A DNA stretch of 64,000 bases, from NCBI GenBank assembly GCA_018817595.1, contig JAHITU010000001.1:32109-96108 (forward strand), written 5' to 3'. A program made the translations under genes and the position numbers. Positions 3,836 through 58,116 of this stretch are shown piece after piece. How positions within the stretch are numbered: position 1 is the stretch's first letter; each line of letters starts with the position of its first letter. The notes under the pieces were generated by a model. The model worked only from the letters and a program-made list of their open reading frames with translations. It was not told where the DNA came from and made no database searches. Source of the stretch: Patescibacteria group bacterium (lineage in GTDB: Bacteria > Patescibacteriota > Minisyncoccia > Phycocordibacterales > UBA12079).

Positions 3836-4397
3836 TCTTTTGTTTACCGACCATGGCTACACAAACTATTTCTGAATTTTGAACTCTAAATAATTTTGGT
3901 AATATTCTTATAAAAATATTGTTATCTAACTCAACAAATTGATTATGGAATCTACAAGCAAAAGACAATTTTTCTAAAGTAAATTGAAGGCTTTCCCTAT
4001 CCCATAAAAAATAATGTTTCCCATGTTCTGGCAAATAAACCTTCGCCTCATTTTCATAGCCATACCGATTAGGAACAACAATTAAAATCTTTCCATAATC
4101 ATTTAACATTTGTTTAATCTTCTCTAAAAGACCAATCGGATCCTTGATATGTTCTAAAACGTGTTTTAAAATAACTAAATCAAATTTTTCCTTAGTCTGA
4201 AAATTTTCTATATCTCCTTCAAAAAACTCGACATTTTTATTAATGTTTTTTGGTCTAAGTCTATCAATTGCAACGATTTTATCTAATTTTACCGAATTAG
4301 AAGATAACATGTTTATTATATTTCCATTACCACAACCGATTTCCATAACACGGTTTCCATCTTTTATATATTTTAAAATAATATTTTCAACTTTCAT
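3813..4397 (-). CDS. Class I SAM-dependent methyltransferase
   Basis: 194 aa. VMEIGCGNGNIINML is motif I, followed by a D/E acidic loop. Confidence 0.7.
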   Translation of the reverse strand: MKVENIILKYIKDGNRVMEIGCGNGNIINMLSSNSVKLDKIVAIDRLRPKNINKNVEFFEGDIENFQTKEKFDLVILKHVLEHIKDPIGLLEKIKQMLNDYGKILIVVPNRYGYENEAKVYLPEHGKHYFLWDRESLQFTLEKLSFACRFHNQFVELDNNIFIRILPKLFRVQNSEIVCVAMVGKQKIDNEKQI

Positions 4398-8053: not shown

Positions 8054-8110
8054 ACGTACAAAATATTACACTAATTTATTCTTTTTATATAATTTAAGAC
8101 TTACTAGACT

Positions 8111-9271
8111 TTAAACTTTGTAGACTTTTGACTCTTTTATTGTTTTTAACCAAGCATCTTTCATCATATTTAGCGACTCATTTTTTGTTTGAGGGACTTT
8201 TCTTAAAAAGTCATTATAAGCCTTTTCTTTCAATTCTTCTAACAATTCTGGATGTTGTTGTGCGTTTATTAAACTTTGAGTTAAACACTTCCCATCTCCG
8301 ACATCACACAACAGAGCATTATTTCCACTCAAAATTTCCCCTACAATCCCTACATTAGTGGTCAAAATAGGACAATGAGAAAGAATGGCTTCAACTAAAG
8401 AAAGTCCATAACCCTCATAATTGGATGTAGATAAAAACAAATCAGCTGTTTTATAATAGGAAATAGGATCGTCAGTCCAACTGTTAAAAATAATATTTTG
8501 CTCTAATCCTTTTCTTCGAGCTAATTTTCTTAATGAATTCCTTTTTGAACCAGACCCCACTATTACTAAACCAGTTTTAGGAAAGACTCTAACGACTTCC
8601 TTCATAGCCGAAATAGCCAAAGCAATATTTTTCTCTTCTTCCAAACGACTCATCATTAAAATAATAAATTTAAATTGGGGATATTTTTCTTTTAAGAAAA
8701 AGCTGGGGGTGATAACCTGAACCAAAGCAGTGCTAGAAAAAATAGGAATAACTGTTATAAATTTATTTTGTATTTCAAGGGGTAAAGAATTTTTTATCCT
8801 TTTAGAAACTACTCTAATATGATCGGCTTTGTTTAACAGAAACCTAGCTATCATTGTTCTAATACGATTCGCAAAAGAATGTTTTATAAAATATTTATTA
8901 AATAAATCTGTATGAATTTGCAACTCTAATTTAGTTTTTAATTTTTGAGAGATTAACCATGCAATAACTCCTGTTTCATATGCATCTTGTGCTGTGACTA
9001 AATCAATTTTAGTTTCATTTTCCTTAATTAGAGAATTTATTTTTAAAGCTACTTTTATAGCATCTCTAATATAAAAAAAACTATTTCTGGAATTAGTTGG
9101 ATATAGATAAACATTTTCACCTATTTTTGTCTTTCTAAAAGGTTCATTTTCTTTATTTAAAATAATCACATCTAATCTATCAATTAAAGTACCATAATCA
9201 AAAAGCCTTTGTCTTACATCAGAATTTTCTTCAAATACTTTTCTGTCTATAGATATGGATAATATTCTCAT
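8111..9271 (-). CDS. Glycosyltransferase family 4
   Basis: 386 aa. STSNYEGYGLSLVEAILSHCPILTTNVGIVGEIL. Confidence 0.75.
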   Translation of the reverse strand: MRILSISIDRKVFEENSDVRQRLFDYGTLIDRLDVIILNKENEPFRKTKIGENVYLYPTNSRNSFFYIRDAIKVALKINSLIKENETKIDLVTAQDAYETGVIAWLISQKLKTKLELQIHTDLFNKYFIKHSFANRIRTMIARFLLNKADHIRVVSKRIKNSLPLEIQNKFITVIPIFSSTALVQVITPSFFLKEKYPQFKFIILMMSRLEEEKNIALAISAMKEVVRVFPKTGLVIVGSGSKRNSLRKLARRKGLEQNIIFNSWTDDPISYYKTADLFLSTSNYEGYGLSLVEAILSHCPILTTNVGIVGEILSGNNALLCDVGDGKCLTQSLINAQQHPELLEELKEKAYNDFLRKVPQTKNESLNMMKDAWLKTIKESKVYKV

Positions 9272-9289: not shown

Positions 9290-10387
9290 TTATTGCTCTT
9301 TTAAAATTTTCTCTAAATTAGAAATAGTGTTTTCTATTGAAAACTTTTGGGATTTATTAAAAGCATTAATTACTATTTTATTTCTAAATTCATCATTTCT
9401 GATAATTTTATTCACAGCACTTATTATTTGTTTTTTGTTGTTTGGTTCAATCAAAATACCATCCATATCATTCTGAATTAATTCTGGCAAAGAACCAACA
9501 TTTGTAGCGATAACTGGTAATTTTAAATTCATTGCCTCTATAGTATCAAAAGAAAAAGATTCCCAATTGGTATTAAATACAAAAATATCAGAATTCTTTT
9601 TTAAATCTAGTAATTCATCTCTAGAAACTGGCCCTGTCAAAATAACATTCTCATCTAATCCAAGTCTTTCTATAATTTTTTCTAATTCTTCTTTTTGAGG
9701 ACCTCCTCCTACAATTTTTAATTTTAGATTCGGAATTTCTTTCAAAATATCTGGCATTGTTTCTATCAAAACATCAAAACCTTTCCAAGGCACTAACCGT
9801 CCCACAGACAATAAAACCTTACTTTCGACTTTATGAACTTTATGGACTTTTGACTCGTTTAGTTCAATCCCGTTATAGATTGGAATTATTTTATTTGAAT
9901 CAATTCCCCAATTAATAATTACTCTTTTAAAATAATGACTAGGCACTATTACTTTTTCAGCAGACCAAGCGACTGCTTTTTGAATCATCTTTAGAAATCC
10001 AACAGAAAAACCATATCCTTTTTCTTTTACTGAAAATACATCGAGATTATCCTTCACACCAAATCTTTGTACTCCCTGCTCCCATGCATAATCCCCCGCA
10101 ATTCTAATTAAAAATCTTTTTTTCAAGATTTTATTAGCCAACATAGTCGGCATGCCAACACTCACAGGATCCTGTGCATAAATAATATCTACTTTTCTAG
10201 CTCTTTTTAAAATTTTAAGGAAATAGACAAAGTGGCGAATTATCTTAGGCAAATTTCGTACTTCTCCAAATGATAAAATCTCTACCTCAATCCCTCTTTC
10301 GGGTAATTTGTCATATAATAATTTTGAATATGTAGCTGGTCCCCCAATATCAGGTGGATATATTCCTGTAGTAATTAATATTTTCAT
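9290..10387 (-). CDS. Glycosyltransferase family 4
   Basis: 365 aa. N-terminal MKILITTGIYPPDIGG and C-terminal NTNWESFSFDTIEAMNLKLPVIATNVGSLPELI. Confidence 0.8.
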   Translation of the reverse strand: MKILITTGIYPPDIGGPATYSKLLYDKLPERGIEVEILSFGEVRNLPKIIRHFVYFLKILKRARKVDIIYAQDPVSVGMPTMLANKILKKRFLIRIAGDYAWEQGVQRFGVKDNLDVFSVKEKGYGFSVGFLKMIQKAVAWSAEKVIVPSHYFKRVIINWGIDSNKIIPIYNGIELNESKVHKVHKVESKVLLSVGRLVPWKGFDVLIETMPDILKEIPNLKLKIVGGGPQKEELEKIIERLGLDENVILTGPVSRDELLDLKKNSDIFVFNTNWESFSFDTIEAMNLKLPVIATNVGSLPELIQNDMDGILIEPNNKKQIISAVNKIIRNDEFRNKIVINAFNKSQKFSIENTISNLEKILKEQ

Positions 10388-10568: not shown

Positions 10569-11117
10569 ATGAAAATACTTTTACTTACCCCTTTATATCC
10601 CCCAGAAATATCAGAGCCAGCTCCTTATATTAAAAAATTGGCAGAGCTTTTGAATGAAAAAAATATAAATACAACAATCATAACTTATTCACTTATTCCT
10701 GAAAAGATAACTGGGGTAAAAATAATCTCCATAAATAAACATCTCCCCTTATTATTAAGACTTAGTTTATTTACTATAAAATTATTTTTTGAATCCTTTA
10801 AAACAGATATTATTTATTCCCAAAATGGAGCCTCTGTAGAACTTCCGCTATTAATAATCTCTAAATTTACAAGAAAACCATACATCATCAGAAAAGGAGA
10901 TGCTTTAGCTTACGAAAAAGCTTCCCAAAATAGATATATCAAGAACATCCAAAGACTTACTTTTGGAAATGCTTACAAAATAATAAAAGAAACCCCTTTA
11001 AAGAAACCAGAACTAACACCCTTTAAAGAAGTTTCTTTGGAAGACCATAGTCGTTACAAAAATTCCTGGGAAAATCATTCTGGAATGTTAATAGAAACTT
11101 TTAAAAATGCCAAGTAA
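10569..11117 (+). CDS. GT4 N-terminal-domain-only protein (half glycosyltransferase or truncated remnant)
   Basis: 182 aa. MKILLLTPLYPPEISEPAPYIKKLAELL parallels the N-terminus of the divergent GT4 at 9290-10387. No C-terminal catalytic half is present. Confidence 0.45.
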   Translation: MKILLLTPLYPPEISEPAPYIKKLAELLNEKNINTTIITYSLIPEKITGVKIISINKHLPLLLRLSLFTIKLFFESFKTDIIYSQNGASVELPLLIISKFTRKPYIIRKGDALAYEKASQNRYIKNIQRLTFGNAYKIIKETPLKKPELTPFKEVSLEDHSRYKNSWENHSGMLIETFKNAK

Positions 11118-17125: not shown

Positions 17126-19010
17126 ATAGCATTTTTTCTAAATTTTCTCTTGAAACACCATTTTCAGGCTTTCTTTCAGGTTCTTTAGGGTAAAATATTC
17201 GAGAAGAATCTTCCTGTGATGTTTTTATTTCTGAATCTTTGGCTTTAATTTCTTCACGAATAATATTCTGGTTATTATTTTCAGACTCCTCTGTCTCTAC
17301 TTTTATTTTTCTTTGAGAAATTTCTTCTTTCCCGCCTCCTTGACGGGTCGCCGATGAGGCGGTTTCTCTTTCTTTCACTTCTTTTTCTAGACTTTTCATT
17401 GCTTCAGACAATGCCTGTTTTAATTGGTTTTTATTTTCAACCGCCACTCGAGGGGCCTTAACAAATTTTGACTTAACAAACTCTTTTTTATCATTTTTAT
17501 TCAGATCACCTAAACTAATTCTGTTACTTTTTGTTTGAGGATATATTTTTTTAGCAAAAGATTCTTCAGACGTAGAAATAATTGGCAAAACTTCATCTTT
17601 GTCATTAATCTTTCTTGTTGGAATTCTTGCTGTGCTAGGTTTTGCTTTAGCAACAGGTTTAACCTTGGTAGAATCTAGCCATTCTTCAATATTTCTTTCC
17701 ACCTCTTCTTTAGCTGCAGCAAAACTCTTTCTAGAATTTTCTAGGATTTCATTTTTATAAGAAAATTCTGGTTTAGTTATAGGTGGTAAGGTTCTTGCAG
17801 AAAAAGGCGTAGAACCGATTCCGTCAATCATCAAACGAAGATAAATTTGAGCAAAACCTAAATTAACAATATCTTCTGCTAAAAAGTTTGGAGCAAATTC
17901 TTTTTCTAATTGTTCCGCATCAGTTGCCCCCACCCTAAAAGCAATCATAGTTCCTACGTTACCAAATACTGCAGCATGCACTGTCTCTGGCATTTGTTCT
18001 ATATATTGATGAGCGATAGTTAAGTTCAATTTATATTTTCTAGCTTGAGATAAAATATCAGCGAAAGAATCATTAGCTAGGTTTTGAAATTCGTCGATAT
18101 ATAAATAAAAATTAGGGAGTTTTGCTAATTCATCACTAGAAACATCAGCACGACTCATCGCTGCTAAATAAATCTTTGTAGTTAACATTGAACCTAATAA
18201 GTTTGCGTTAGCTTCTCCAACCTGCCCAATAGAAAGATTCACTAAAAGAATCTTTTTGCTATCCAAGACATCTCTGAAATCAAAAGAAGACTTTGATTGT
18301 CCAACAATATTTCGTATTAAAGGATTAGAAGTAAATTGACCTACCTTGTTTAGAATGGCAGCATAAGCATCTTTTCTATATCTCTCGTCCCAACCAGCAA
18401 ACTCTTCAGTCCAAAAAGATTTTACTGATGAATCAGTAATATTATCCACTACTTTTTTTCGATATTTTGCATCGGTAAAGATTTTGGTCATTCCCAACAT
18501 AGTAGATCCAGGGTATTCCAAAAGGGCTAACAAAGTATTGTTGGTGATGTGTTCCATTCGGTCAGAAAAAGTATCTTCTCCCCAAATCTTTTTGAAAGCC
18601 GAAAGTAGCCCTTGAGCTACCAAGTGTCTTTTATCAGGACCAACATCTTCCATAACATTAAAAGAAATCGGGTGCTCGGTATCAAAAGGGGCAAAATAAA
18701 TCACATCCTCGATTCTCTCTTCGGGAACATAATCAAGAAATTTCTTAACTGATTGTCCGTGGGGGTCAATAAAACAAATTCCATTTCCACTTTTAATATC
18801 TTGTACTGCCATGTTTTCCAACATAGTAGATTTTCCCATACCGGTTTTACCAATCACATAGACGTGACGAGTTCTATCAGAGGCTTTAATACCAAAAGGA
18901 GTTCTTTTATTTCTACGATCTACCTCAGCAAAATATGTAATAGGATTATCATTATTCATTGTTGTAATTATATAAGAAAAAAGAAAAAGTTGAAAGTGAT
19001 TGACAAACAT
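17103..19010 (-). CDS. TraD/VirD4/TraG-like AAA ATPase (coupling-protein-like, soluble)
   Basis: 635 aa. Walker A VIGKTGMGKST, Walker B LYIDEFQNL, an IAHQYIEQ Q-motif, and a K/E-rich low-complexity tail. Overlaps the LTD gene by 23 nt. Confidence 0.6.
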   Translation of the reverse strand: MFVNHFQLFLFSYIITTMNNDNPITYFAEVDRRNKRTPFGIKASDRTRHVYVIGKTGMGKSTMLENMAVQDIKSGNGICFIDPHGQSVKKFLDYVPEERIEDVIYFAPFDTEHPISFNVMEDVGPDKRHLVAQGLLSAFKKIWGEDTFSDRMEHITNNTLLALLEYPGSTMLGMTKIFTDAKYRKKVVDNITDSSVKSFWTEEFAGWDERYRKDAYAAILNKVGQFTSNPLIRNIVGQSKSSFDFRDVLDSKKILLVNLSIGQVGEANANLLGSMLTTKIYLAAMSRADVSSDELAKLPNFYLYIDEFQNLANDSFADILSQARKYKLNLTIAHQYIEQMPETVHAAVFGNVGTMIAFRVGATDAEQLEKEFAPNFLAEDIVNLGFAQIYLRLMIDGIGSTPFSARTLPPITKPEFSYKNEILENSRKSFAAAKEEVERNIEEWLDSTKVKPVAKAKPSTARIPTRKINDKDEVLPIISTSEESFAKKIYPQTKSNRISLGDLNKNDKKEFVKSKFVKAPRVAVENKNQLKQALSEAMKSLEKEVKERETASSATRQGGGKEEISQRKIKVETEESENNNQNIIREEIKAKDSEIKTSQEDSSRIFYPKEPERKPENGVSRENLEKMLYVKHPEE

Positions 19011-19076: not shown

Positions 19077-19484
19077 ATGGAAATTGAATTAAAACAATGG
19101 GTCAAAGGAAAAAGAACCCCATCAGATAACCCAGCAAATATACTAGCAACGGAAGACGAGACACATTTTTGTTTTGACTTCCCCCTTTCTGTTTGGTCAA
19201 ATGGTTCTACAATTTGTGTTGTCCCAAAAGATGGCACAAAAGCTGAATGGCTTGACGGCTTCAAAACAGAAATTGAAATAGTCGGTCGTTCTTCCAAAAC
19301 AGAAAGATTGGGAATGGGTTGCAACCCAAAAAACTGGAGACATTATCTCAACCCTCTGTTTATTGTGAACCAAGAGATTCTTGATTTACTTTTGAAGTTC
19401 GGAGAGGAAAACAATTTGACCAATTTAATCGAATTGGTCAAAAAAGGAAATCCTCATCCTGATTTCCCGATCAAAAGATTTTGA
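19077..19484 (+). CDS. Hypothetical protein (start moved to the ATG after the AGGAGG RBS)
   Basis: AGGAGG at 19065-19070, ATG at 19077, 135 aa (MEIELKQWVKGKRTP...). The listed ORF start at 18753 runs antisense through the ATPase gene. A hairpin terminator sits at 19495-19525. Confidence 0.5.
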   Translation: MEIELKQWVKGKRTPSDNPANILATEDETHFCFDFPLSVWSNGSTICVVPKDGTKAEWLDGFKTEIEIVGRSSKTERLGMGCNPKNWRHYLNPLFIVNQEILDLLLKFGEENNLTNLIELVKKGNPHPDFPIKRF

Positions 19485-19526
19485 AGAATTAAAACCCCTG
19501 AACACAAAATACCAGTGTTCAGGGGT

Positions 19527-19790
19527 TGATTTATTTCTGGACTGCTTCGCAAGCTCGCAGAGACGAATTTTGCTTTGCAAAATTCGTTAACGAAAAGCTT
19601 TGCTTTTCGTACGAACGAGACTTTGTCTCGTCCGTCTTTGCGAGGAGGTCACGACAGTCTACCCGTCCTTGCTTGCTACTGCGCACCCCTGCGCGCCGGC
19701 AGGCGTGGCCAGGCAGGGATGAGGTGGGAAGCAATCCAGAGATTTTTACAAAAATACTCCAGTTAACTGGAATAGTTTTTCTTAATTCTT
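19527..19790. repeat. Composite GC-enriched repeat element (family E core, three hairpins, partial family A)
   Basis: ctggactgcttcgcaagctcgcagagacgaa (19537-19567) is followed by three perfect hairpins: cgaattttgc/gcaaaattcg, acgaaaagc/gcttttcgt and acgagac/gtctcgt. Then cccctgcgcgccggcaggcgtggccaggcaggg. Confidence 0.6.
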
Positions 19791-19922
19791 AAATCCAAAA
19801 AAAAAAATAAACTCAAAATCGGATACAGTTCAAGGAATCGAAGGAAAAAATTTTGAGTCGTACTTCAGGTACGGTGAAAAATATTTTTCTGCGGCTGACG
19901 AAGAAATGTGCCGATTTTGGGT

Positions 19923-21125
19923 TTATTCTGTATAGAGTGCTCCTTTAGTATACCGATTCGAAGCCGACCACAACAACCAAGAATCCAATCCTGAATCATA
20001 AGTAGCTTGTATTTGTGCTCTTACTTTAGCAGCATCATAATCTGCCCCTAAATCGAAATCCTGCAACCAAGGTCTTAATTTATCAGGACTGGAACTAGCT
20101 GCTATAGCCTTTTTCACAGCGAAATCCATAGAGTATTTAATCACTTCATATGGATAAGCTGCTGGATTTTTCAAACCAATAAATCCTGTTGGATAATGAG
20201 AAGGATAAACCATAGGACAAACATAATCAAAAAACGGCAAAGCATATTCCAAAATTTGACCGATGTTTAAATCATCACTATTAGTAGTTACCATTCCAAA
20301 TAAATCAACAGACAAAATGGCATCTATATCATTCATTTTATTATCTAGGTAAACAAAAAATTCTTGCAAAACTTTAGCCTTCCCTTTTTCAGGATCAAGA
20401 GTCACTCTCTCTTCACTCACTGGGTAATAAATTTCTTTCATGTTTCCATCTGATGGAAAACGAATGTAATCATAATTAATTTCATCAAAACCTAATTCAT
20501 AGACTTCTTTAGATAAAGCAATAACATAATCCCAAACTTCAACTGAACCAGCATCCAACCAAGAAATACCTTTATGATCTTTCCAAATCGCTCCTCCTTC
20601 TGATTTCTTCACAGCCAACTCTGGTCTTTCTCTAACCAATTGAGGGTCTTGGAACACAGGTACTCGTCCAATGATATAAATACCTTTGGAATGCCAATCC
20701 TCAAGGAGTTCTTTGATGTCATGAATTTTACACTCTCCCTTACTAGAATCAGCAATGGCATTTTGAAATAAAGGATTTTCCAAATCAAAAGCAATTTTTC
20801 CTGTTTCGTCCTTAACATTCAAAATAATAGAATTAATTTCAGTATCTTCAACCAATTGTTCAAGAGTTTTTCTAAAACTTGGAGTAGAGGCTGCACATGC
20901 AGTCATATAAATAACTTTTGTTTTTTCTGGAGTCTCAATATGAACAGAGCGATAAATATTATCAGCTGGGACTTCTGAAGAAACTTCACTGTTAAATGTG
21001 ACATAAAAACCTAAAATGTCAGTAGTCAAAAATAAAAACAAAGCGATGCCTAAAACACCACCCAAGGTTATAAAACCAAAAATCTTTATTTTATTCTTTA
21101 TTAAGTATTTCTTCATTTTCAACAA
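19923..21125 (-). CDS. Putative glycoside-hydrolase-like protein (GHL/DUF4015-type TIM barrel) with an N-terminal TM
   Basis: 400 aa. N-terminal TM helix, then IILNVKDETGKIAFD...GIYIIGRVPVFQD...YIRFPSDG, which resembles GHL family proteins. Confidence 0.45.
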   Translation of the reverse strand: MLKMKKYLIKNKIKIFGFITLGGVLGIALFLFLTTDILGFYVTFNSEVSSEVPADNIYRSVHIETPEKTKVIYMTACAASTPSFRKTLEQLVEDTEINSIILNVKDETGKIAFDLENPLFQNAIADSSKGECKIHDIKELLEDWHSKGIYIIGRVPVFQDPQLVRERPELAVKKSEGGAIWKDHKGISWLDAGSVEVWDYVIALSKEVYELGFDEINYDYIRFPSDGNMKEIYYPVSEERVTLDPEKGKAKVLQEFFVYLDNKMNDIDAILSVDLFGMVTTNSDDLNIGQILEYALPFFDYVCPMVYPSHYPTGFIGLKNPAAYPYEVIKYSMDFAVKKAIAASSSPDKLRPWLQDFDLGADYDAAKVRAQIQATYDSGLDSWLLWSASNRYTKGALYTE

Positions 21126-21300: not shown

Positions 21301-21425
21301 ATTGTTTATATTATACTTTATTTATTTTGAATAACCAAATATTAGTTTAGCTTATAGCTTATAGAGGTTAGCTTTTAGGAGAAAAATTTACTTCGTAAAT
21401 TTTTCTGACTTTCGACTTTACAGAC

Positions 21426-21464
21426 CTGCCTGTCCCTGCGCGCCGGCAGGCGTGGGCAGGCAGG
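21426..21464. repeat. Family-A GC-rich palindromic intergenic repeat (about 40 bp)
   Basis: cctgcctgtccctgcgcgccggcaggcgtgggcaggcagg, directly 3' of the rsmI stop. Other copies: 19685-19717 (partial), 31646-31685, 37523-37562 (plus mini-palindrome 37479-37497), 56525-56584 (opposite strand, with an internal duplication), 57588-57627. Confidence 0.8.
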
Positions 21465-21480
21465 CTTTATAGACTTTCGA

Positions 21481-22167
21481 CTAATTTATCATCACCACAA
21501 ATTCACCTTTTACCTTATCTGAATTGTCTTCAAAATATTTTATTACTTCTTCTATTGTTCCTGAAACAATTTGTTCAAACATTTTAGTTATTTCTCTACC
21601 AATAACAATTTTTTTATTTTGCTCAAATTCTTCTGATAATTCTTTTATTGTTTCTAGGGTTTTTAATATTCTGTGTGGAGATTCATAAAAAACAGCTGTT
21701 CTCTTTAATTCCAAAATTTCATTAATGGCAGTTTGTTTACCTTTTTTACGAGGCAAAAATCCAAAAAAAGTAAAAGAGTCCGCAGGTAAACCACTAACTG
21801 ACAAAGCAGAAATTAAGGCCGAAGGACCAGGAATTGGTGTGACCATAACACTCTCGCCAAATTTTTCTTTCACTTGAGCCACCAACATAAAACCAGGATC
21901 TGAAATAGTAGGCGTTCCAGCGTCAGAGACTAAGGCTAAATCTTTACCTTCTTCCAGTAATTCTAAAATTTTATCAGTCTTAATCTTTCCACTAAATGAA
22001 TGATAAGAAATAGTAGGAGTTTCTATTTCGTATTTATCTAAAAGTTTTCGAGTTACTCGAGTATCTTCGCATAATACAAAATCCACCTCTTTTAAAATTC
22101 TCAAGGCTCGTAAAGTAATATCTTCCAAGTTCCCAATAGGTGTTCCTATTATGTATAAATGTTGCAT
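21481..22167 (-). CDS. rsmI: 16S rRNA (cytidine1402-2'-O)-methyltransferase RsmI
   Basis: 228 aa. MQHLYIIGTPIGNLEDITLRALRILKEVDFVLCEDTR is a tetrapyrrole-methylase-fold RsmI N-terminus. Confidence 0.85.
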   Translation of the reverse strand: MQHLYIIGTPIGNLEDITLRALRILKEVDFVLCEDTRVTRKLLDKYEIETPTISYHSFSGKIKTDKILELLEEGKDLALVSDAGTPTISDPGFMLVAQVKEKFGESVMVTPIPGPSALISALSVSGLPADSFTFFGFLPRKKGKQTAINEILELKRTAVFYESPHRILKTLETIKELSEEFEQNKKIVIGREITKMFEQIVSGTIEEVIKYFEDNSDKVKGEFVVMIN

Positions 22168-23558: not shown

Positions 23559-23640
23559 TTTATTTTGTTCTTTATTTAACCAGAAAGGTTTGTCAATTTA
23601 TTGGCAAGCCTTTTCTTATTGTTTTTATATTTGTTTAAGC

Positions 23641-24212
23641 ACCTGTCAGAGTCGAACCTACCTACCCCTATGTACCAAAAGGCGTGGACAGGTAAGCTGA
23701 CGACCTATGGTTTACGATACCATTGCTCCCGCCTCATCGGCGAGTCGCCGATGAGGCGACTACCATTAAACTTCAAACTGAGCCCTCTGTCGGACTTGAA
23801 CCGACCACCTACGATTTACCCTGTTAGAGCTGAGGGCGAGAATTGAACTCGCGACCTACGGTTTACGATACCGTTGCTCTACCAACTGAGCTACCTCAGC
23901 TCTAACAGGGTAAACGATACTATTATCCCGCCTCATCGGCGGGTCGCCGATGAGGCGACTACCAGATGAGCTAAGAGGGCAAACTCGTCTTAATCCCCAC
24001 CGGCTGGAGTTATATTGAGCCCGAGGACGGGATTGAACCGACGACCTACACATTACCATTGTTGAAACCTCCTAAGGTCGGTTTCAACTCCACCAACTGA
24101 GCTATTTCAATTACCTTTTGAGCCAACAAACGGAATCGAACCGATGACCTCTCCAGTGGACCATTAAAACTTGCGAATCTCGTCTTAATCCCCACCGACT
24201 GGAGCTCGAATG
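23641..24212 (-). other. Array of tRNA-Thr-derived fragments and pseudo-tRNA pieces with interspersed GC-rich palindromes
   Basis: Three copies of a Thr(CGU) anticodon arm (GGTATCGTAAACC or variant). T-arm/acceptor 3' halves at about 23770-23826 and 24017-24050. A 35-nt duplicate of the tRNA-Thr(GGU) 3' end at 24121-24155. Palindromes at 23731-23757 and 23930-23956. Confidence 0.5.
23828..23900 (-). tRNA. tRNA-Thr (anticodon CGU)
   Basis: Reverse complement folds manually as acceptor GCTGAGG/CCTCAGC, D arm GCTC-AGTTGGTA-GAGC, anticodon arm ACGGT-AUCGUAA-ACCGT, T arm GCGAG-TTCAATT-CTCGC, discriminator U. Confidence 0.7.
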
Positions 24213-25324: not shown

Positions 25325-25392
25325 CGGGAGTCTGAATCGAACAGACACCTAGAGGTTATGAGCCTCCTGTGCAACCTTTACACCATCCCGCG
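25322..25392 (-). tRNA. tRNA-fMet-like (anticodon CAU, C1·A72 mismatch)
   Basis: 5' CGCGGGA paired with 3' TCCCGCA leaves C1·A72 unpaired, as in bacterial initiator tRNA. Anticodon arm GGAGG-CUCAUAA-CCTCT, T arm GTCTG-TTCGATT-CAGAC. 71 nt. Confidence 0.6.
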
Positions 25393-25395
25393 ATA

Positions 25396-25583
25396 TATTT
25401 AATATTTAATTTTCAACTATTATAATAACCTCTAAAGGTTATAAGTCATATTGCTTCATGTGCAGTTCGTCTACACCATCCCGCGATATATTTAATATTT
25501 AATTTTCAACTATTTTAATAACCTCTAAAGGTTATAAGTCATATTGCTTCATGTGCAGTTCGTCTACACCATCCCGCGATAAT
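25396..25583. repeat. Tandem direct repeat (about 93 bp x 2) of degenerate tRNA 5'-half-like units
   Basis: The unit ends in caccatcccgcgat, identical to the 5' acceptor/D region of the tRNA at 25322-25392. The unit also carries aacctctaaaggtt, echoing the anticodon stem. Confidence 0.7.
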
Positions 25584-25831: not shown

Positions 25832-26419
25832 CTAAATAAATTGAAATTCTTCAAAAACAATTTTATATAAACCAACTGCTCTCTTAGCTGTTCTTTGTGT
25901 TAATAATGAGTCTGTTCCTCCGTGAGCTATTTGATTTCTTATTTTGTGCGCCTCCCAAGCACTATTTATTGTAATGAAATCACTTCTTTCTACTTGTTTT
26001 AATCTTTCTCCCAAAGACTCTCCTGAGTAACCGGACTTTTTCATTATTTCATCTAGAATTACATCAGCATCTAAAACAGCCATTCTCCATTCAGCTGGTG
26101 AATCCGAGTTCACATAACTTACTATTTTTTCCCATCTCTCGTTTTTAATTTCTCCTCCTTCAAAATCTACAGTAGAAGAAACTACGGTATCAAATATTTC
26201 AGAATTTTTTGCGGAAACCTCTTTCATTTTGTGGCGAACATAAAGAATCCCAGCCAACAACAAAGCAGAAAGGATCAAAGAGTAAAACATTATAGAAGAC
26301 CAATTATCATAGTACAACTTAAATAACCTAACCGGGTTAAGATAATAAAATATATTTGAAATTAAAAGATAAATCCAATAATAAATTTGTCCAAGATTTA
26401 AGAAATCAATATTTTCCAT
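25832..26419 (-). CDS. Membrane-anchored protein with a C-terminal HEPN-like (Rx4H) motif
   Basis: 195 aa. Two N-terminal TM helices. The C-terminal AWEAHKIRNQIAHGG carries an R-x4-H motif. Confidence 0.4.
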   Translation of the reverse strand: MENIDFLNLGQIYYWIYLLISNIFYYLNPVRLFKLYYDNWSSIMFYSLILSALLLAGILYVRHKMKEVSAKNSEIFDTVVSSTVDFEGGEIKNERWEKIVSYVNSDSPAEWRMAVLDADVILDEIMKKSGYSGESLGERLKQVERSDFITINSAWEAHKIRNQIAHGGTDSLLTQRTAKRAVGLYKIVFEEFQFI

Positions 26420-26596
26420 AATTTCAAGTGAGGATTTATAAAAACGATTATGTAATAATATGTTTTTATATAATCCGAGCGAAGGAATTATATGCTCGCT
26501 TCATATAATTTCAAGTGAGGATTTATAAAAACGATTATGTAATAATATGTTTTTATATAATCCGAGCGAAGGAATTATATGCTCGCTTCATATACC
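26419..26596. repeat. Tandem direct repeat (about 89 bp x 2) in the promoter region upstream of 25832-26419
   Basis: The unit atttcaagtgaggatttataaaaacgattatgtaataatatgtttttatataatccgagcgaaggaattatatgctcgcttcata occurs twice back-to-back. Confidence 0.8.
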
Positions 26597-30690: not shown

Positions 30691-30896
30691 TTATAACACA
30701 AAGCAAATCAGCTTTTAAATAAAAACCATTTATTGTTTTTTAGATTGAAGGAATTACTTCGTCAAGAAAATTTAAATTTAAAATTCGGCTATAGAATAGC
30801 CAAATTTTAAATTTAAATTTTCTTTCCTTGCAAAGACAAATCACTTTAGTGATTCGTTCCACTTTAACTTTACAGACTTTATAGACTTTCGACTCG

Positions 30897-31427
30897 TTAA
30901 TACGTTACCTGCCAAGCCCGTTCTACTCTCTTTTTATTATTAGGATCACAAGTGTTTTGTCCAAAGGATTTAATCAAAGTATCATCATCGTTTAATTTAT
31001 AGATATCAACTTGAACACAAGCTCCAGAAGGGTATGACAAACTAAAATTATTCCTACTACAATTTGCTCCACAATCTTGATTAAAGGAAACAGCAACATC
31101 TTGACCACTGCAATTGATATTTGATAAAGGTGCTGCTGTGTTTGAAAAATTGTCTTCATGAATATCCCAATATAAAGCACATTCCATTCCCCCATCAGCT
31201 GCATAAAAAGCAAATAATGATTCTCTAGCTCCAGAAGATAAAATAACTTCTCTCATCGCAATACCAAAAATAGACAAACCAATTACTAAAAAAACATTAG
31301 CTAGTAGCAAAGCAATCATTGAAACAAATGCTTTATCAGCTCTTAGCTTATAGATATTAGCTTTTAGGAAAAGTTTACTACGTAAATTTTTTATGTTTAT
31401 TATTTTGTTATTTTTAAGGTTTTTCAT
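30897..31427 (-). CDS. Pilus-locus secreted Cys-rich protein with a long basic leader (atypical pseudopilin-like)
   Basis: 176 aa. Leader MKNLKNNKIINIKNLRSKLFLKANIYKLRADKAF, then a hydrophobic helix. Its 5' coding region contains repeats also found intergenically (31348-31392). Confidence 0.4.
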   Translation of the reverse strand: MKNLKNNKIINIKNLRSKLFLKANIYKLRADKAFVSMIALLLANVFLVIGLSIFGIAMREVILSSGARESLFAFYAADGGMECALYWDIHEDNFSNTAAPLSNINCSGQDVAVSFNQDCGANCSRNNFSLSYPSGACVQVDIYKLNDDDTLIKSFGQNTCDPNNKKRVERAWQVTY

Positions 31428-31645
31428 TTTATTAGTTTTTTGGTTTCTGTCTTATTATATGGATTGAAGAGATTGCTTCCCTAGTACTTTGAATTAAATT
31501 GCTTACTTTTTATTTTACAAAGCATTTTAGGTTTTTTATTAACTTTATTTATATGGTTGTAACAAAGTACTAGGTCGCAAAGACGAAAATCTACGATTTT
31601 CATTACAGATTTTGCGGAGCAAAATCCGTAACTTTTGACTTTGGA

Positions 31646-31685
31646 CCCGCCTGCCCCTGCGCGCCGGCAGGCGTGGTCAGGCAGG
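31646..31685. repeat. Family-A GC-rich palindromic repeat copy
   Basis: ccgcctgcccctgcgcgccggcaggcgtggtcaggcagg, then ctttacagactttcgactcg, directly 3' of the pilin stop at 31707. Confidence 0.8.
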
Positions 31686-31706
31686 CTTTACAGACTTTCG
31701 ACTCGT

Positions 31707-32237
31707 TTACTGCCAATTCAATAAACGTTCTTTGACTACAAATTGACGAGTATTAGGACCCTCTTGCCAAGACATGGTTACTACTACTTCTAATTCCTTA
31801 TCTGGGATAATTTCATTTATTTCTATTTCCCTTTTAATCAAAGAAACATTTCCAGAGGTATAACCATAAAGATAACTAACTGGATCATATTTTAAATTTT
31901 CACAACCGCTTAAAGAACAAGAAGAAACTGTTTGAGCAGGAGAATCAATCTTACATTTAGTACCAAAATTAGTACAATCAGTCAAACCAATCAACCAACC
32001 TCTATCATTTAGAATATTTGTGTCTCTAACGTTTCTTATGTACTCAATAGCCTCTTGAGCTAAATACATAGCAACTATCTGCCCCTTAGCTATTTTAGAT
32101 ATGGAAAGTCCTTTTGTAACCAAAACTAATGGTCCAGACATAGCAATCAGCAAAACAGTAATAGCAATAAAAGTTTCTATCAAAGTAAAACCTCTTTTAA
32201 GTTTATTATTATTTTTTAATTTTTCAAAATATTTCAT
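31707..32237 (-). CDS. Type IV pilin/pseudopilin (prepilin N-terminal methylation motif)
   Basis: KRGFTLIETFIAITVLLIAMSG. Confidence 0.8.
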   Translation of the reverse strand: MKYFEKLKNNNKLKRGFTLIETFIAITVLLIAMSGPLVLVTKGLSISKIAKGQIVAMYLAQEAIEYIRNVRDTNILNDRGWLIGLTDCTNFGTKCKIDSPAQTVSSCSLSGCENLKYDPVSYLYGYTSGNVSLIKREIEINEIIPDKELEVVVTMSWQEGPNTRQFVVKERLLNWQ

Positions 32238-37409: not shown

Positions 37410-37478
37410 AATATGATTAGTTAAAAGTTTATAAAGTCGAAAGTCTTTTTTTAAAATTTCCGAAGCAAATTTTTACTC

Positions 37479-37562
37479 CTACCTGCCGGCAGGTAGGTTA
37501 TAGACTTTATGAACCTTACAGACCTACCTGCCCCTGCGCGCCGGCAGGCGTGGGCAGGCAGG
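37479..37562. repeat. Family-A repeat copy plus the adjacent mini-palindrome cctacctgccggcaggtagg
   Basis: Located 3' of the pilT stop (37579) and 5' of pilC. It is flanked by the pilus-promoter palindrome at 37454-37472. Confidence 0.8.
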
Positions 37563-37578: not shown

Positions 37579-38640
37579 TTATTTAAAATTTCTATTTAAC
37601 TCCTTTGAACGATATGAATATTTTCTTGCATCTTCTAAAGTTATTTCTCCGAACCTAACTAAATCTTCTAGAGATTTATTCAAGCTCACCATTCCTTCGT
37701 TAGAAGATGTTTCGATAACATTGTGGATTTCAAAAGTTCTCCCTTCTCGAATTAGATTTGCAGTAGCGTTATTATTTATCAATAATTCATACGCAGGAAT
37801 CATACCCCCAGAAATTCTAGGAACCAATCTTTGAGAAAAAATACCTAGAAGAGAAGCTGCTAATTGAATTTTGATCTGGCTTTGTTGTTGGGGTGGAAAT
37901 ACATCAATAATTCTATCAATAGTCTGAGCTGCATTATTAGTATGCAAGGTAGAAAATACTAAATGGCCTGTTTCAGCAGCAGTAACAGAGGTAGAAATTG
38001 TTTCTAATCCTCTCATTTCTCCAATCATCAAAACATCAGCATCTTGTCTAAAAATAGACTTCAAAGCAGTTGGGAAATCCTTCGTGTCAATTTTTATTTC
38101 TCTTTGATCTATCATTGATTTACCTTCTTGGAAAACATATTCAATTGGATCCTCTATTGTAACGATATGTTCAGCCCTAGATTGGTTTATCATTTCTATC
38201 ATAGAAGCAAGAGTTGTTGATTTACCATGTCCCATAGGACCAACTACTAAGAAAAAACCTTGTTGTTTTTGAATAAAATCACCTAAAACTGGAGGTAAAT
38301 TAAGTTCTTCTAGTGTTTTTACTTTCTTTGGGATTAATCTAAGACTTATTCCAATCGATTTCTGAGTAAAAAAACAGGAACCTCTAAAACGAGCATCCCC
38401 CGCTTCAAAAGAAAAATCAATTTCTTTTTCTCTTAAAAACTCTTCTTTATACTCTGGTGTAAGGAGCTGAGTTACAACACCTAAAAGGTCCTCGTGGGTA
38501 ACCACAGGCATAGATTCTAAATAGTGTAAAATACCATGTACTCGTATTACAGGGTGTTTACCTTTAGATAAATGAATATCAGAACCATTTTCTTTTACAA
38601 CAGCATCTATTAAATCTTTTATTAATTTATTATAATCCAT
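37579..38640 (-). CDS. pilT: Type IV pilus retraction ATPase
   Basis: 353 aa. Walker A GPMGHGKST, a His box, and a PilT-like C-terminus. Confidence 0.85.
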   Translation of the reverse strand: MDYNKLIKDLIDAVVKENGSDIHLSKGKHPVIRVHGILHYLESMPVVTHEDLLGVVTQLLTPEYKEEFLREKEIDFSFEAGDARFRGSCFFTQKSIGISLRLIPKKVKTLEELNLPPVLGDFIQKQQGFFLVVGPMGHGKSTTLASMIEMINQSRAEHIVTIEDPIEYVFQEGKSMIDQREIKIDTKDFPTALKSIFRQDADVLMIGEMRGLETISTSVTAAETGHLVFSTLHTNNAAQTIDRIIDVFPPQQQSQIKIQLAASLLGIFSQRLVPRISGGMIPAYELLINNNATANLIREGRTFEIHNVIETSSNEGMVSLNKSLEDLVRFGEITLEDARKYSYRSKELNRNFK

Positions 38641-38807
38641 AAAATTAGTTAAAAGTCCTTAAAGTCAAAAGTCTATAAAGTCAAAATCCACTTCGCGAAT
38701 TTACTATTATATAATTTCAACATAAACTTATTATACTATAAATAAATTTATAAAAATTAAATTGTTGGGGAAAAATCACAAAGTGATTTTTACCACTTTC
38801 GACTCGT

Positions 38808-43337: not shown

Positions 43338-44012
43338 ATGAAAGTCTGCAATAAATTTAACAAAATCTGTGGAATAATCTTGAATATCATTATTCCCCTA
43401 AATAATACCCAAAAAAATTTGAAGAATATATCTCCTGAAGAATTTTTATCTCTAACATCTCAAAGGAAGGTTCAATTTCCTCCTATTAAAAATTCAGTGG
43501 CTATATTCAGTTACAAAAGCAAACTGGTAAAACAAGCGATTTGGTCCCTAAAATTTAAAAATAACTCTGAAATTTCAAAACTTTTTGGAGAAATACTTTA
43601 TGATTATTTAATAGAGGAGTTAGCTGATTTAAAATTGTCTCATAATTTTGATAAGCCTATTTTAATTCCCATCCCTATAACAAGAAAAAAGAAATTAGAA
43701 AGGGGTTATAACCAAACGGAATTAATCGCCCAAGAAATTAACAAATTAGATAACAATAATTCTTTTGAATACCGAAAGAATATTCTTAAAAAAATAAAAA
43801 ACACTTTACCTCAATCCCGCACTAGTAACAAAAAAGAACGAGAAGAAAATTTAAAAGGGTGTTTTAAAGTAATAATGCCCAAACTAATCAAAAACAGAAA
43901 TATTATTCTACTAGATGATGTTATTACTACAGGGGCTACTTTGACAGAAGCTAAAAAAACTCTTCAACAATATAAACCTAGAAATATTATTTGTGTTAGT
44001 TTGGCACACTAG
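43338..44012 (+). CDS. comF: ComF-family phosphoribosyltransferase-domain protein
   Basis: 224 aa. PRTase motif IILLDDVITTGATLTEA. Confidence 0.7.
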   Translation: MKVCNKFNKICGIILNIIIPLNNTQKNLKNISPEEFLSLTSQRKVQFPPIKNSVAIFSYKSKLVKQAIWSLKFKNNSEISKLFGEILYDYLIEELADLKLSHNFDKPILIPIPITRKKKLERGYNQTELIAQEINKLDNNNSFEYRKNILKKIKNTLPQSRTSNKKEREENLKGCFKVIMPKLIKNRNIILLDDVITTGATLTEAKKTLQQYKPRNIICVSLAH

Positions 44013-44130
44013 AAAAATAAATTTAATTAAATTTATTTTTTAGATTTAAGATTTAGGAATTAAGATTTAAGATTTAAGTCACCTCATCGGCGACCCGCCA
44101 AGGAGGCGGGATTTAAGATAACGGATTTTA

Positions 44131-44682
44131 TTATTTCAATAAATTAATTTTTTCACCCATTTCAATCTGAAGCCTGTCTATACTATCGTGTTTAAATATT
44201 TTAGCCTGCACCTCTTCAGAAAACATTTCCTTTACGTCTTCACTATATAACGCTCCGTCTCGTGGAATTTTAAAACTAAATTTTTCTGGGTCGTAAAAAG
44301 AAAGTTCATTAGGATAATCTAACAATAAAGGAAGAGAAGCTCCACTTAATTTTTCAACTTCTCCATTTTCTAACATAATATATTCACTACAATAAACCCA
44401 AAGAGATAATGGGAATAATTCGTTTTCTAAATCCAGATTTTCAAAGACACAAATATTTGAACTTCCCTCTCTTGTTTGCCAAGCAACCTCTGGTAGAGTA
44501 ATTAAATATTTTTCTATTGTTTCTATTAACATAGGATTTAATCCTTTATTAATGTTTTCAATTTCTGTAATTTCTTGAGGTGTTTCAATAAATTCCGATT
44601 CATCAAACATTAAGAAATCAAAAAATTGAATTCCGAAGATGATTATTATTAGGGCTATTATTGTGTAGATTGTTTTTTTCAT
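44131..44682 (-). CDS. Hypothetical secreted or membrane-anchored protein
   Basis: 183 aa with an N-terminal TM helix. Confidence 0.4.
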   Translation of the reverse strand: MKKTIYTIIALIIIIFGIQFFDFLMFDESEFIETPQEITEIENINKGLNPMLIETIEKYLITLPEVAWQTREGSSNICVFENLDLENELFPLSLWVYCSEYIMLENGEVEKLSGASLPLLLDYPNELSFYDPEKFSFKIPRDGALYSEDVKEMFSEEVQAKIFKHDSIDRLQIEMGEKINLLK

Positions 44683-45207
44683 ATTAGTTCATAATATCAT
44701 AATTAATGGGTTTTTATAAGATATTGAAAGGGAGGGATTCGGTCACTCTCATGGATATTTATTTCACCAGCACTTTTGTAAAAAGTGCTGGGTATATTCG
44801 TTCGGTTCGAATTCCTCCCTCTCATTCATAGGTTGCTAATTTCAAATACCTTAATCGGTATTTGAAATTAGCAATGCGGAGAGGGAGGGATTCGGTCACG
44901 AATCACTAAGTAAAATTTTTCGCAAGCTCAAATTTTACTAAGTGTTCTCGACCCCGACTCGCCAGTATGAAAATTCACTGAAGTGAATTTTCTCTGGCTC
45001 CGTCCTTCGAATCCCTCCTCACTGACAAAACAATAATAAAAGACAACAACTTAGGTTGCTGTCTTTTATTATTGTTGCGGGCAACCTCGGTCTGGAACCG
45101 TAGGTTACCAAGCCCTGCAAGGCGGTTTTAAGCTTTTTAGAGCTACTAACCGAAGGATCCTCGTGCGCCTTTATTTTTTATATCTAATCAATTCTTCTAA
45201 TAATAAA

Positions 45208-45801: not shown

Positions 45802-45834
45802 AATTGATATATAAAGTTACACTCCTCTGTAACT

Positions 45835-48649: not shown

Positions 48650-48654
48650 GTTTT

Positions 48655-55861: not shown

Positions 55862-56443
55862 ATGAAGAGTAAAAACAAAATTTTAATTATTTTAGGACAT
55901 CCTCTTAAAGATTCTTTTTGTGGGGCTTTGGCTCAGTCATATATAAAAGGAGCAAATGAAAGCTCTAAGGAAATAAAAACTATTTACCTAGGGGATTTAG
56001 ACTTTGACCCTGTTTTAAGAAATGGATACAAAAAAATTCAAGAACTAGAACCTGATTTAATTAATGCTCAAGAAAAAATAAAGTGGGCAGAACATATTGT
56101 TTTAATTTATCCGACTTGGTGGGCCACCTATCCAGCCTTGGTTAAAGGATTTTTTGATAGAATACTATTACCTTCCTTTGGATTTAGGTTTGAAAAAGAG
56201 AGTAACTGGCTACCTAAAAAATTATTAAAAGGACGCACCCTGCAATTAATAATCACCATGGATGGACCGCCTTTGTTATATAGGTTTTTCTTAGGTAATT
56301 TACATAAAAAAATTATTAAACAGACATTAGGTTTTTGTGGGATTAAATTAACCAAAACAAATTATTTTGGTTCTATGAAAAAGTCTAGCTCTTATCAAAG
56401 AAAAAAATGGTTAGATACTGTTTATAGTTTTGGAAAAAAATAA
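55862..56443 (+). CDS. Flavodoxin-like NAD(P)H-dependent oxidoreductase
   Basis: 193 aa. MKSKNKILIILGHPLKDSFCGALAQSY with a KefF/MdaB-like fold signature. Confidence 0.65.
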   Translation: MKSKNKILIILGHPLKDSFCGALAQSYIKGANESSKEIKTIYLGDLDFDPVLRNGYKKIQELEPDLINAQEKIKWAEHIVLIYPTWWATYPALVKGFFDRILLPSFGFRFEKESNWLPKKLLKGRTLQLIITMDGPPLLYRFFLGNLHKKIIKQTLGFCGIKLTKTNYFGSMKKSSSYQRKKWLDTVYSFGKK

Positions 56444-56524: not shown

Positions 56525-56584
56525 CCTGCCTGCCCACGCCTGCCCACGCCTGCCGGCGCGCTGGGACGCGCAGGGGCAGGCAGG
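56525..56584. repeat. Family-A repeat copy (orientation matches + strand transcription; internal duplication)
   Basis: cctgcctgcccacgcctgcccacgcctgccggcgcgctgggacgcgcaggggcaggcagg, 80 nt after the stop of 55862-56443. Confidence 0.75.
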
Positions 56585-57587: not shown

Positions 57588-57627
57588 CCTGCCTGCCCCT
57601 GCGCGCCGGCAGGCGTGGGCAGGCAGG
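57588..57627. repeat. Family-A repeat copy
   Basis: cctgcctgcccctgcgcgccggcaggcgtgggcaggcagg, directly 3' of the stop of 57640-58116. Confidence 0.8.
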
Positions 57628-57639
57628 TTTCCTAAAAAG

Positions 57640-58116
57640 CTATCTTGTGTATTTAAGAGTATTTCCCCTATCTAAATAAATCATCTCTAGATTGTTTTCA
57701 TCTAATTTTACAATTTGATAGAAAAATTGTTCACCTCCTGATACATAAAGCATATATTTTCCGTTTTCACTTTCAAGAGTTTCTCTTGTAATAGGATATT
57801 CGTCATAAAGCATAATTGGTCCTTCACTCATAGCTGCTCCGTCATAAAAATCAATTTTATATTTATCGCTGAATTCAATAACTGATTTTTCATCATCTAA
57901 TGATTTCCAAGGTCCTCTCATTTTTTCATAATTATTTAAACCAATTAAATCCCTTTCTTGGCTCTCCTGATTCCCTTGATTCTCTTGATTTTTCACAATG
58001 GAATCATTGTTAACGTCACTTTCCTCTAAATTTTCAATTGGTTTATCTAGAAAACTTAAACCAAACCATGCCAACAAAACAATTCCTATTAATATCCAAA
58101 TTTTTTCTGATTTCAT
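57640..58116 (-). CDS. Hypothetical secreted protein
   Basis: 158 aa. Signal/TM MKSEKIWILIGIVLLAWFGLSF. Confidence 0.45.
   Translation of the reverse strand: MKSEKIWILIGIVLLAWFGLSFLDKPIENLEESDVNNDSIVKNQENQGNQESQERDLIGLNNYEKMRGPWKSLDDEKSVIEFSDKYKIDFYDGAAMSEGPIMLYDEYPITRETLESENGKYMLYVSGGEQFFYQIVKLDENNLEMIYLDRGNTLKYTR

Follow-up and report, generated by a model that had tools for sequence, protein, structure and literature searches.

The DNA analysed here, called the window, is a stretch of 64,000 nucleotides with a GC content of 24-36% (about 30%) from a Patescibacteria contig. The stretch belongs to a metagenome contig of 102 kb (ENA ERZ27247128 k141_238787), and its RsmI protein is NCBI MBU1046207.1, listed under 'Patescibacteria group bacterium'. 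The minus strand contains 50 of its 60 genes, among them an rsmI-like gene, a pilin-like gene and pilT, and behind the stop codons of these and other genes a GC-rich palindromic repeat recurs, which is named family A in the following. A preliminary description of the sequence had interpreted the repeat as an element of 3' untranslated regions (UTRs) that resembles repetitive extragenic palindromes (REPs) and acts as an mRNA stabilizer, a terminator or a protein-binding site. Patescibacteria have tiny, streamlined genomes, and, to our knowledge, reports on their repeated DNA are few. Literature searches, including a search with the exact sequence, did not retrieve a description of the family-A element or of the 20-mer that forms its core.

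The 40-nt consensus CCTGCCTGYCCCTGCGCGCCGGCAGGCGTGGGCAGGCAGG was found four times in the window with at most three mismatches each, versus zero matches expected by chance, and the 10-nt arm was found 14 times versus 0.42 expected. The repeat of the preliminary description is real and its copies were found, but the consensus typed there has no match, because the string contains two surplus positions, and the first hit starts at 21425 instead of 21426. Two further copies had been missed, one that consists of the arms only and one that is heavily decayed (Table 1). All family-A copies of the window are intergenic. In four cases a stop codon precedes the copy at a distance of 12-21 nt, in accordance with the claim that at least four lie close behind stops, and the names given to the adjoining genes agree with the gene calls. 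The copy at 56525 is localized 81 nt past the stop of the flavodoxin-like gene, and the copy at 19678 is 205 nt away from a stop, within a 220-nt composite element. As positions within 25 nt downstream of a stop make up only 9.5% of the intergenic bases, the presence of four of six copies at such positions corresponds to a P value of about 1e-3 by our own arithmetic. The copies in the window are clearly non-random and placed inside 3' UTRs.

The architecture of the element is modular. The 40-mer consists of four 10-mers, CCTGCCTGCC CCTGCGCGCC GGCAGGCGTG GGCAGGCAGG, of which the outer two, CCTGCCTGCC directly followed by GGCAGGCAGG, form a perfect 20-nt palindrome on their own. The asymmetric inner module of 20 nt, CCTGCGCGCC followed by GGCAGGCGTG, sits exactly at the dyad of this palindrome and is identical across separate genomes. 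For comparison, eight low-GC contigs with the 40-mer were obtained by a metagenome scan (L007-L014), and further loci are also designated by L numbers. The bare 20-mer occurs at 37478 in the window and in L009 (13805), L011 (8910), L015 (4885), L021 (1132) and L024 (719). In the 60-mers of the window (56525), L007 and L012 a second inner module is nested at the dyad of the first, and therefore both arms always grow together, in steps of 10+10 nt. The RNA folds of the two strands of the 40-mer have energies of -32.6 and -28.9 kcal/mol, and the less stable of the two, in which an A-C mismatch interrupts the inner stem, is the one present in the mRNAs of the window. Variant copies show single, one-sided C>T or G>A changes, which break pairs or leave wobbles, and a compensatory double change is present only in the 20-mer at 37478. 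These one-sided, non-compensatory changes indicate decay under AT-biased mutation and not the upkeep of a structure.

Table 1. Positions of family-A copies, flanking arrays, neighboring genes and other repeats (window coordinates unless an L number is given).
Feature	Position	Strand	Remarks
40-nt family-A copy	21425..21464	+	1 mismatch to consensus; 16 nt after rsmI-like stop
40-nt family-A copy	31646..31685	+	2 mismatches; 21 nt after pilin-like stop
40-nt family-A copy	37523..37562	+	1 mismatch; 16 nt after pilT stop
40-nt family-A copy	57588..57627	+	identical to consensus; 12 nt after stop of 57640..58116(-); flanked by TTCCTAA direct repeats with 1-nt offset
60-nt family-A copy, reverse orientation	56525..56584	-	inner 20-nt module present twice; extra 10-mer per arm
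Degenerate family-A copy (earlier listed at 19685)	19678..19717	+	inner module and right arm intact, left arm diverged
Arms-only 20-nt palindrome CCTACCTGCCGGCAGGTAGG	37478..37497		arm matches
AT-decayed 40-mer	23657..23696	+	67% identical; between T-stem and T-loop of tRNA-Thr(CGT)-like pseudogene on minus strand
Left flanking array GACTTTCGACTTTACAGA	21407..21424		7-9 nt CTTT/GACTTT units; from sequence; uninterrupted in L021
Right flanking array CTTTATAGACTTTCGACTA	21465..21483		final 3 nt are the rsmI stop codon; from sequence and L021 comparison
Native AT-rich hairpin AGAAAAATTTAC-TTCG-GTAAATTTTTCT	21380..21406	-	3' of element in transcript; kept in element-free L021
Left flanking array AACTTTTGACTTTGGA	31630..31645		from sequence
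Right flanking array CTTTACAGACTTTCGACTCGTTTA	31686..31709		stop codon included; from sequence
Array TTATAGACTTTATGAACCTTACAGA	37498..37522		separates 20-mer and 40-mer; from sequence
AAAGTC/GACTTT arrays	8095-8135, 9815-9860, 30866-30900, 37424-37450, 38652-38700, 38793-38806, 58205-58240		from sequence
220-nt GC-rich composite of nested hairpins	19527..19745		12-bp terminal inverted repeats CTGGAYTGCTTC; carries the 19678 copy
rsmI-like TP_methylase gene	21481..22167	-	gene calls
Pilin-like gene	31707..32237	-	gene calls
pilT	37579..38640	-	gene calls
Flavodoxin-like gene	55862..56443	+	gene calls
158-aa gene, function not assigned	57640..58116	-	gene calls
Second composite family	19527-19745, 31540-31640; L015 7420-7500, 10740-10870; L007; L011		shared modules
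Family-B GC-rich palindrome CGCCTCATCGGCGA...TCGCCGATGAGGCG, dispersed	17330-17368, 23727-23765, 23926-23964, 44077-44115		from sequence
tRNA-Ile gene, anticodon TAT	61146-61219		side observation

Syntenic loci of relatives were retrieved via RsmI homologs, namely L021 (89% identical), L015-L017 (86%; NCBI GCA_900089805.1 and two other assemblies) and L018-L020 (82%). Behind rsmI, L021 reads TAG TCGAAAG TCCATAAAG TCCATAAAG TCGAAAGTC, followed by the same AT-rich hairpin as in the window. At this empty site (TCGAAAG TCCATAAAG, TCCATAAAG TCGAAAG) the 40-mer of the window is found exactly between the two 9-nt units. The rsmI site of L015 contains a different GC-rich hairpin element, that of L018 contains none. 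The pilin spacer has a length of 280 nt in the window versus 119 nt in L015 and about 80 nt in L018, and the latter two are devoid of the palindrome and of the arrays. Family A is absent from the rsmI, pilin and DUF4015 sites of both L015 and L018, and no GC-rich island is present across 20 kb of L018. The 220-nt composite that carries the degenerate copy adjoins the conserved hairpin-plus-T terminator of the DUF4015 gene (19755-19774), which is kept in L015 and L018; the orthologous spacers lack the whole 220-nt block, and thus it represents an inserted composite. It was considered that the GC-rich region at 19.6 kb might be a known structured RNA, and this was rejected, because 19300-20000 has no Rfam match (E<=1) and the block is absent in the relatives. 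An Rfam search of the whole window at gathering thresholds also yielded no match relevant to family A.

Insertions were also found in tRNA genes. In L014 a duplicated 5' fragment of a tRNA-Leu gene reads GGTGGAA, the 40-mer and then TTGGTATAC, while the intact gene 60 nt away reads GGTGGAATTGGTATAC; the insertion lies in the D-loop. In L021 the 20-mer is placed precisely at the junction of T-stem and T-loop of tRNA-Thr(CGT), a gene that is intact in L015, and the decayed 40-mer of the window is at the same T-loop position. In the phage contig L050 the 20-mer supplies a tRNA-Met that is intact in all other respects with an additional variable arm (ARAGORN: 92 nt with and 72 nt without the palindrome), in the phage contig L057 it is present in the D-loop of a tRNA fragment, and in the phage contig L046 it occupies loops of an unrelated hairpin family. 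The flanking sequence runs unbroken across the tRNA insertions of L014, L021 and L050, and neither these sites nor the rsmI site have a target duplication. This shows that copies have been gained or lost as exact blocks of 20 or 40 bp without target duplication at the rsmI 3' UTR and in tRNA loops. A coding gene is affected as well: gatC of L015 and L016, which are independent assemblies, contains the 20-mer in frame (CLPAGR in translation) as part of an insertion of 42 nt that is missing from the gene in the window and in L018.

The tRNA-Thr(CGT) locus has additional features (L021 940-1180; L015 9419-9700). In L021 each of the three loops of the tRNA contains a hairpin-shaped insertion. The D-loop harbors a palindrome of a second GC-rich family (TCGCCYCATCGGCGACCCGCCGATGAGGCGGG), and the anticodon loop harbors a whole replacement tRNA-Thr(CGT), the acceptor helix of which is extended by 10-11 bp. 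Two such disrupted outer tRNAs are present in the window (23635-24110, minus strand) and were not called by ARAGORN. Past the right end of the window, L024 (1-1600) contains a transfer-messenger RNA (tmRNA) gene beside smpB, followed by repeated tmRNA 3'-end fragments and a family-A 20-mer, an arrangement that looks like the remains of integrations at ssrA.

Several copies are embedded in arrays of short units, and the flanking word family that had been reported at or near stops was recovered with 15 matches versus 4.8 expected. Arrays of 7-9 nt AAAGTC/GACTTT units directly follow some stops (consensus TAA-ACGAGTCGAAAGTC); this subset belongs mainly to pilus and glycosyltransferase genes. In the opposite orientation they are found directly upstream of the start codons of pilT and pilC, and one array lies in frame within the open reading frame (ORF) of a GT4 glycosyltransferase, where it encodes KVHKVHKVESKV. 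The units may be pre-existing targets, excision footprints or a part of the element. The polarity of the core relative to the arrays is identical in all five array-associated copies (21425, 31646 and 37523 in the window, the copy of L008, and the copy at 8041 in L013). The association with arrays behind certain stops, together with the tolerance of insertions at these positions, is the better explanation for the concentration of copies near stops in the window.

A transcription-consistent orientation had also been claimed. When orientation is scored by the form that is read in the sense strand of the upstream gene, all five clear copies of the window agree, but the rule does not extend to other genomes. 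Outside of the window two copies have the same orientation (L008 and L011) and five the opposite one (L009, L010, L012 at 11636, L013 at 5878, and L014 in its tRNA context), the copy at 8041 in L013 lies between two divergent gene starts, and two further copies cannot be scored. L010 even shares the flanks of the window copy at 56525 (CTGGA...YTGCTTTGTCGAGTA) and has a flipped core. The eight contigs L007-L014 contain the 40-mer with at least 90% identity and have almost no other DNA or protein similarity to the window. The uniformity within the window is explained by the fixed polarity of core and arrays, the fixed orientation of the arrays after stops, and the localization of nearly all genes on one strand. 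A scan of representative genome contigs, a set that does not contain the source genome, with a 22-nt core yielded only four matches, all in genomes with 65-69% GC, which were judged to be due to chance.

The exact 20-mer is not restricted to Patescibacteria. It was detected in 35 stretches of viral contigs of IMG/VR with GC contents of 38-68%, in contrast to zero matches for three palindromes matched for type and composition. Several of these contigs are genuine phages with genes for terminase gpA, a lambda-type portal and a major head protein, and some carry several exact and degenerate copies. Flanking direct repeats of at least 7 nt (lengths 7-14 nt) accompany 7 of 42 phage copies, versus 1.5% in controls with mismatched flanks. 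Apart from a pyrimidine at the first flanking base, the flanks of the phage copies have no common subterminal motif, and therefore the AAAGTC arrays are lineage-specific and not a universal part of the element. The 40-mer core had no match in IMG/VR and the half-element had one. The exact 20-mer is absent from 50,697 GenBank phage records, with DUST masking excluded as the cause, and no full-length exact 20-mer is present among the 40 listed of 76 plasmid records. A separate observation concerns the phage contig L059, in which a 21-nt unit (TGCCTACCGGCAGGCAGGCCA) composed of the family-A arm sequence is repeated about ten times in tandem (3926-4124).

Taken together, we think it rather likely that family A represents an insertion element of very small size and modular build that forms hairpins, i.e., selfish repeated DNA comparable to REPs, to miniature inverted-repeat transposable elements (MITEs) and to the GC clusters of mitochondria. 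New copies would be made at the DNA level, and single-stranded or loop-like DNA as well as A/T-rich arrays of short repeats would be the favored targets. The enzyme would act in trans and be encoded away from the copies. By analogy, the leading candidate would be an enzyme of the HUH/Y1 type that uses single-stranded hairpins, either a REP-associated tyrosine transposase (RAYT) or a relative of the IS200/IS605 type; template switching or gene conversion would be an alternative route. Such a single-strand hairpin enzyme, or else template switching, is suggested by the preference for loops and by the fact that the tRNA and rsmI sites lack duplications, although the variable direct repeats at other sites do not fit either of the two cleanly. 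Copies would persist where they are least harmful, between the stop codon and the native terminator. After insertion the copies decay by C>T and G>A changes.

Several observations weigh against an insertion element. Each case of presence and absence could formally be a precise deletion, since neither a donor/recipient pair nor a recent transposition was seen, and the tandem 9-mer at the 'empty' site of L021 could be a footprint. Direct repeats are inconsistent, with none at the tRNA and rsmI sites and lengths of 7, 8, 9, 13 and 14 bp elsewhere, and therefore no single known transposition chemistry fits. The common orientation of the five clear window copies in the mRNA sense has to be counted here as well. 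In three related phages the 20-mer is found about 110-130 nt past the major head gene, and together with the window copies after pilin and pilT this hints at selection for a hairpin at the 3' end. Lastly, no candidate for a transposase, a RAYT, a Y1 enzyme, an insertion sequence (IS) transposase or a nuclease is present in the Pfam annotations of about 77 kb of the 102-kb contig, and therefore the mobilizing machinery is pure inference.

The sole recombinase in these 77 kb is a large serine recombinase, which is part of an island with an N6_N4 methyltransferase, an S24 peptidase and a protein with an SduA_C domain. The interval between the inverted copies at 56525 and 57588 was considered as a location of a RAYT or transposase gene and rejected, as it contains only small ORFs without similarity and ordinary terminators. 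One of the ORFs in this interval (57239-57466, minus strand) encodes a Cys- and Gly-rich protein of 75 aa without a family match and has terminators on both sides. An IS with CCTGCCTGCC ends was not found among the retrieved loci.

Comparison with known systems reveals many similarities and no perfect fit. In gamma-proteobacteria, REPs and the elements formed by pairs of them (REPINs), together with RAYTs of the Y1 HUH type and the mosaics known as bacterial interspersed mosaic elements (BIMEs), are short GC-rich palindromes that often lie behind stops and may stabilize the upstream mRNA. Family A shares with them the small size (20-40 nt), the high GC content, the imperfect palindrome, the multiple extragenic copies near stops, the lack of target-site duplication, and the mosaic with short extra motifs, here the AAAGTC arrays. 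It differs in that a GTAG-type head is missing and only a pyrimidine tendency at the first base outward of each palindrome edge is observed, which on one strand amounts to a purine before and a pyrimidine after the palindrome. Furthermore, its copies are single and not inverted doublets, the sole inverted pair (56525/57588) being 1 kb apart, it nests into its own dyad, and it also occurs in tRNA loops and in an ORF. In addition, its host is a Patescibacterium with 30% GC and its 20-nt core is common to phages of very different GC contents. The Rickettsia palindromic elements (RPEs), which have sizes of about 100-150 bp, are similar in their in-frame insertion into a gene, but family A consists of GC-rich 20-60-mers with nested modular growth and has no sequence similarity to them. 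Family A has terminal inverted repeats as MITEs do, namely its arms of 10-11 bp (CCTGCCTGCC / GGCAGGCAGG), but not a target-site duplication of fixed length. Like the GC clusters of yeast mitochondria, it combines a length of about 40 nt and a GC-rich hairpin structure with an AT-rich genomic setting, a variable presence and a mostly intergenic localization; GC clusters also merge and shuffle into composite palindromes, and a transposition mechanism has not been established for them (PMC4478555). However, the 42-nt cluster GC42 duplicates an AG target dinucleotide and has its substitutions concentrated in the loops (PMC4478555), while family A inserts without duplication at the tRNA and rsmI sites, has one-sided changes in the stem, and is found in a bacterium and in phages rather than in an organelle. 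There is also no sequence similarity between GC42 and family A. In its form and probable behavior family A comes closest to the REP-, GC-cluster- and RPE-like elements, and we do not assign it to any one of these families. A role as a DNA-uptake sequence was rejected, because about one copy per 8-10 kb is far too sparse and close relatives do not contain the element.

The bare 20-bp palindrome CCTGCCTGCCGGCAGGCAGG might even be a cosmopolitan mobile unit that seeks out structures and could be the smallest one known. It would insert without duplication into single-stranded loops, namely the D-, variable and T-loops of tRNAs, the apices of other hairpins and its own dyad, the last of which would give rise to the 40- and 60-mers. 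Transfer would take place between Patescibacteria and phages of very different GC contents, by means of an undescribed enzyme acting in trans or a process at the RNA level; we regard this far-reaching proposal as unlikely.

A different view is that family A is a selected RNA element, in which the 3'-UTR hairpin blocks 3' exonucleases or aids termination and is kept for the benefit of the upstream gene. A REP hairpin acts in this way for malE-malF in Escherichia coli. The position of four of six copies 12-21 nt behind stops, the strong hairpins of both strands, the 20-mer behind the major head gene of three phages, and the five of five orientation in the window are in agreement with this view. 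Intrinsic terminators are likewise GC-rich hairpins shortly after the stop. However, a T-run follows none of the window copies, as had already been noted, and a terminator scan of the window did not flag them; hairpin-plus-T sites as such are enriched (24 versus 9.7 +/- 3.5 expected). The palindromes lie between the stop codon and a native hairpin, as exemplified by 57640..58116, which has a canonical hairpin-plus-T terminator at about 57542-57570, just downstream of the 57588 copy, and native terminators of this kind are kept in relatives without the element. The orthologous 3' UTRs of close relatives are empty, the window mRNAs carry the strand form with the mismatch, and the variants are non-compensatory. 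Elsewhere the orientation is mixed, with one copy in a divergent 5' region, and copies occur in tRNA loops and within an ORF. Of the preliminary interpretation, the REP-like form and the localization in 3' UTRs have stood, while the preference for an RNA-level function over mobile scatter has not, in view of the empty relatives, the copies in tRNA genes and an ORF, the decay, the terminators and the orientation. Selection for an RNA function thus seems doubtful as the explanation of the family. With each copy, an mRNA 3' UTR gains a hairpin of -29 to -33 kcal/mol, and the transcript may be stabilized as a side effect. The location of copies behind phage head genes and pilin genes is a mild hint at such a secondary, REP-like mRNA stabilization.

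Still less probable is a double-stranded DNA binding site composed of 10-bp modules (CCTGCNNGCC twice, then GGCAGGCNNG twice) for a dimeric or tetrameric protein. Candidates would be a nucleoid, gyrase or IHF-type factor as at BIMEs, a regulator or a partition protein. The 10-nt periodicity is close to one helical turn, and both the identity of the asymmetric inner module across genomes and the fixed polarity of the core versus the arrays in five of five cases speak for such a site. However, the sites are missing in close relatives that possess the same genes, the copies decay freely and are also found inside tRNA genes and gatC, phage contigs with 38-68% GC are unlikely to share one host factor, and a candidate binding protein was not identified. 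Least probable is the lack of a common descent, i.e., that (CCTG)n/(CAGG)n-type palindromes arose repeatedly by slippage or fold-back synthesis or that they are assembly artefacts: the arms, (CCTG)2CC and GG(CAGG)2, are microsatellite-like, arm length shifts in 10-nt steps, and one assembly ends inside the element, but the inner asymmetric module is identical in separate genomes, the control palindromes had no match versus 35 stretches for the 20-mer, both arms always lengthen together, the same copies were recovered in independent ENA, Logan, JGI and NCBI assemblies, and the flanks are continuous across the insertions, and this explanation is largely refuted.

The window and related genomes contain additional repeats and features. 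A second composite, multi-hairpin GC-rich family is characterized by the modules CGTCTYTGCGAG and GCAGTCCAG/CTGGAYTGC and by small hairpins with TTTG-type loops. It is spread over different spacers of related genomes and occupies the rsmI 3' UTR of L015 instead of family A. Two of the four copies of family B, another dispersed palindrome, are localized in tRNA D-loops. Small GC palindromes, including CCGCCAGCTGGCGG and GTCCGCCGCGGCGGAC, are present at 56688-56719 in the window, at about 2300 in L010 and in the phage contig L046, where they nest in hairpin loops. A 93-nt tandem duplication overlaps the end of a tRNA-Met gene (25379-25564); in the ENA version of this contig one of the units is missing, and the copy number thus differs between assemblies. 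An exact tandem duplication of 87 nt is found at 26418-26591, and a related sequence (AATTTCGAGTGAGGATTTATAAAGACGATTATGTAATAATATG...) is present in the rsmI spacer of L015 (about 10890-10960). A LOOT RNA (Rfam RF03000, 60 bits; 52116-52251, minus strand) adjoins the large serine recombinase. The island at about 44000-55200, with the N6_N4 DNA methyltransferase, the S24 peptidase and the SduA_C (Shedu-type) protein, has a GC skew of opposite sign to the rest of the window.

The results speak for a family of nested GC-rich palindromes in active turnover, by which 3' UTRs, tRNA loci and one or more coding genes are remodeled. On the practical side, family-A elements break short-read assemblies, and an annotator may take them for terminators or regulatory sites. 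Common descent of the 20-nt core with its counterparts in dozens of uncultivated phages, if genuine, would make the core a marker of DNA traffic between phages and their hosts. In that case the core would also be a candidate for a mobile unit of exceptionally small size that has a structural target, the loop.

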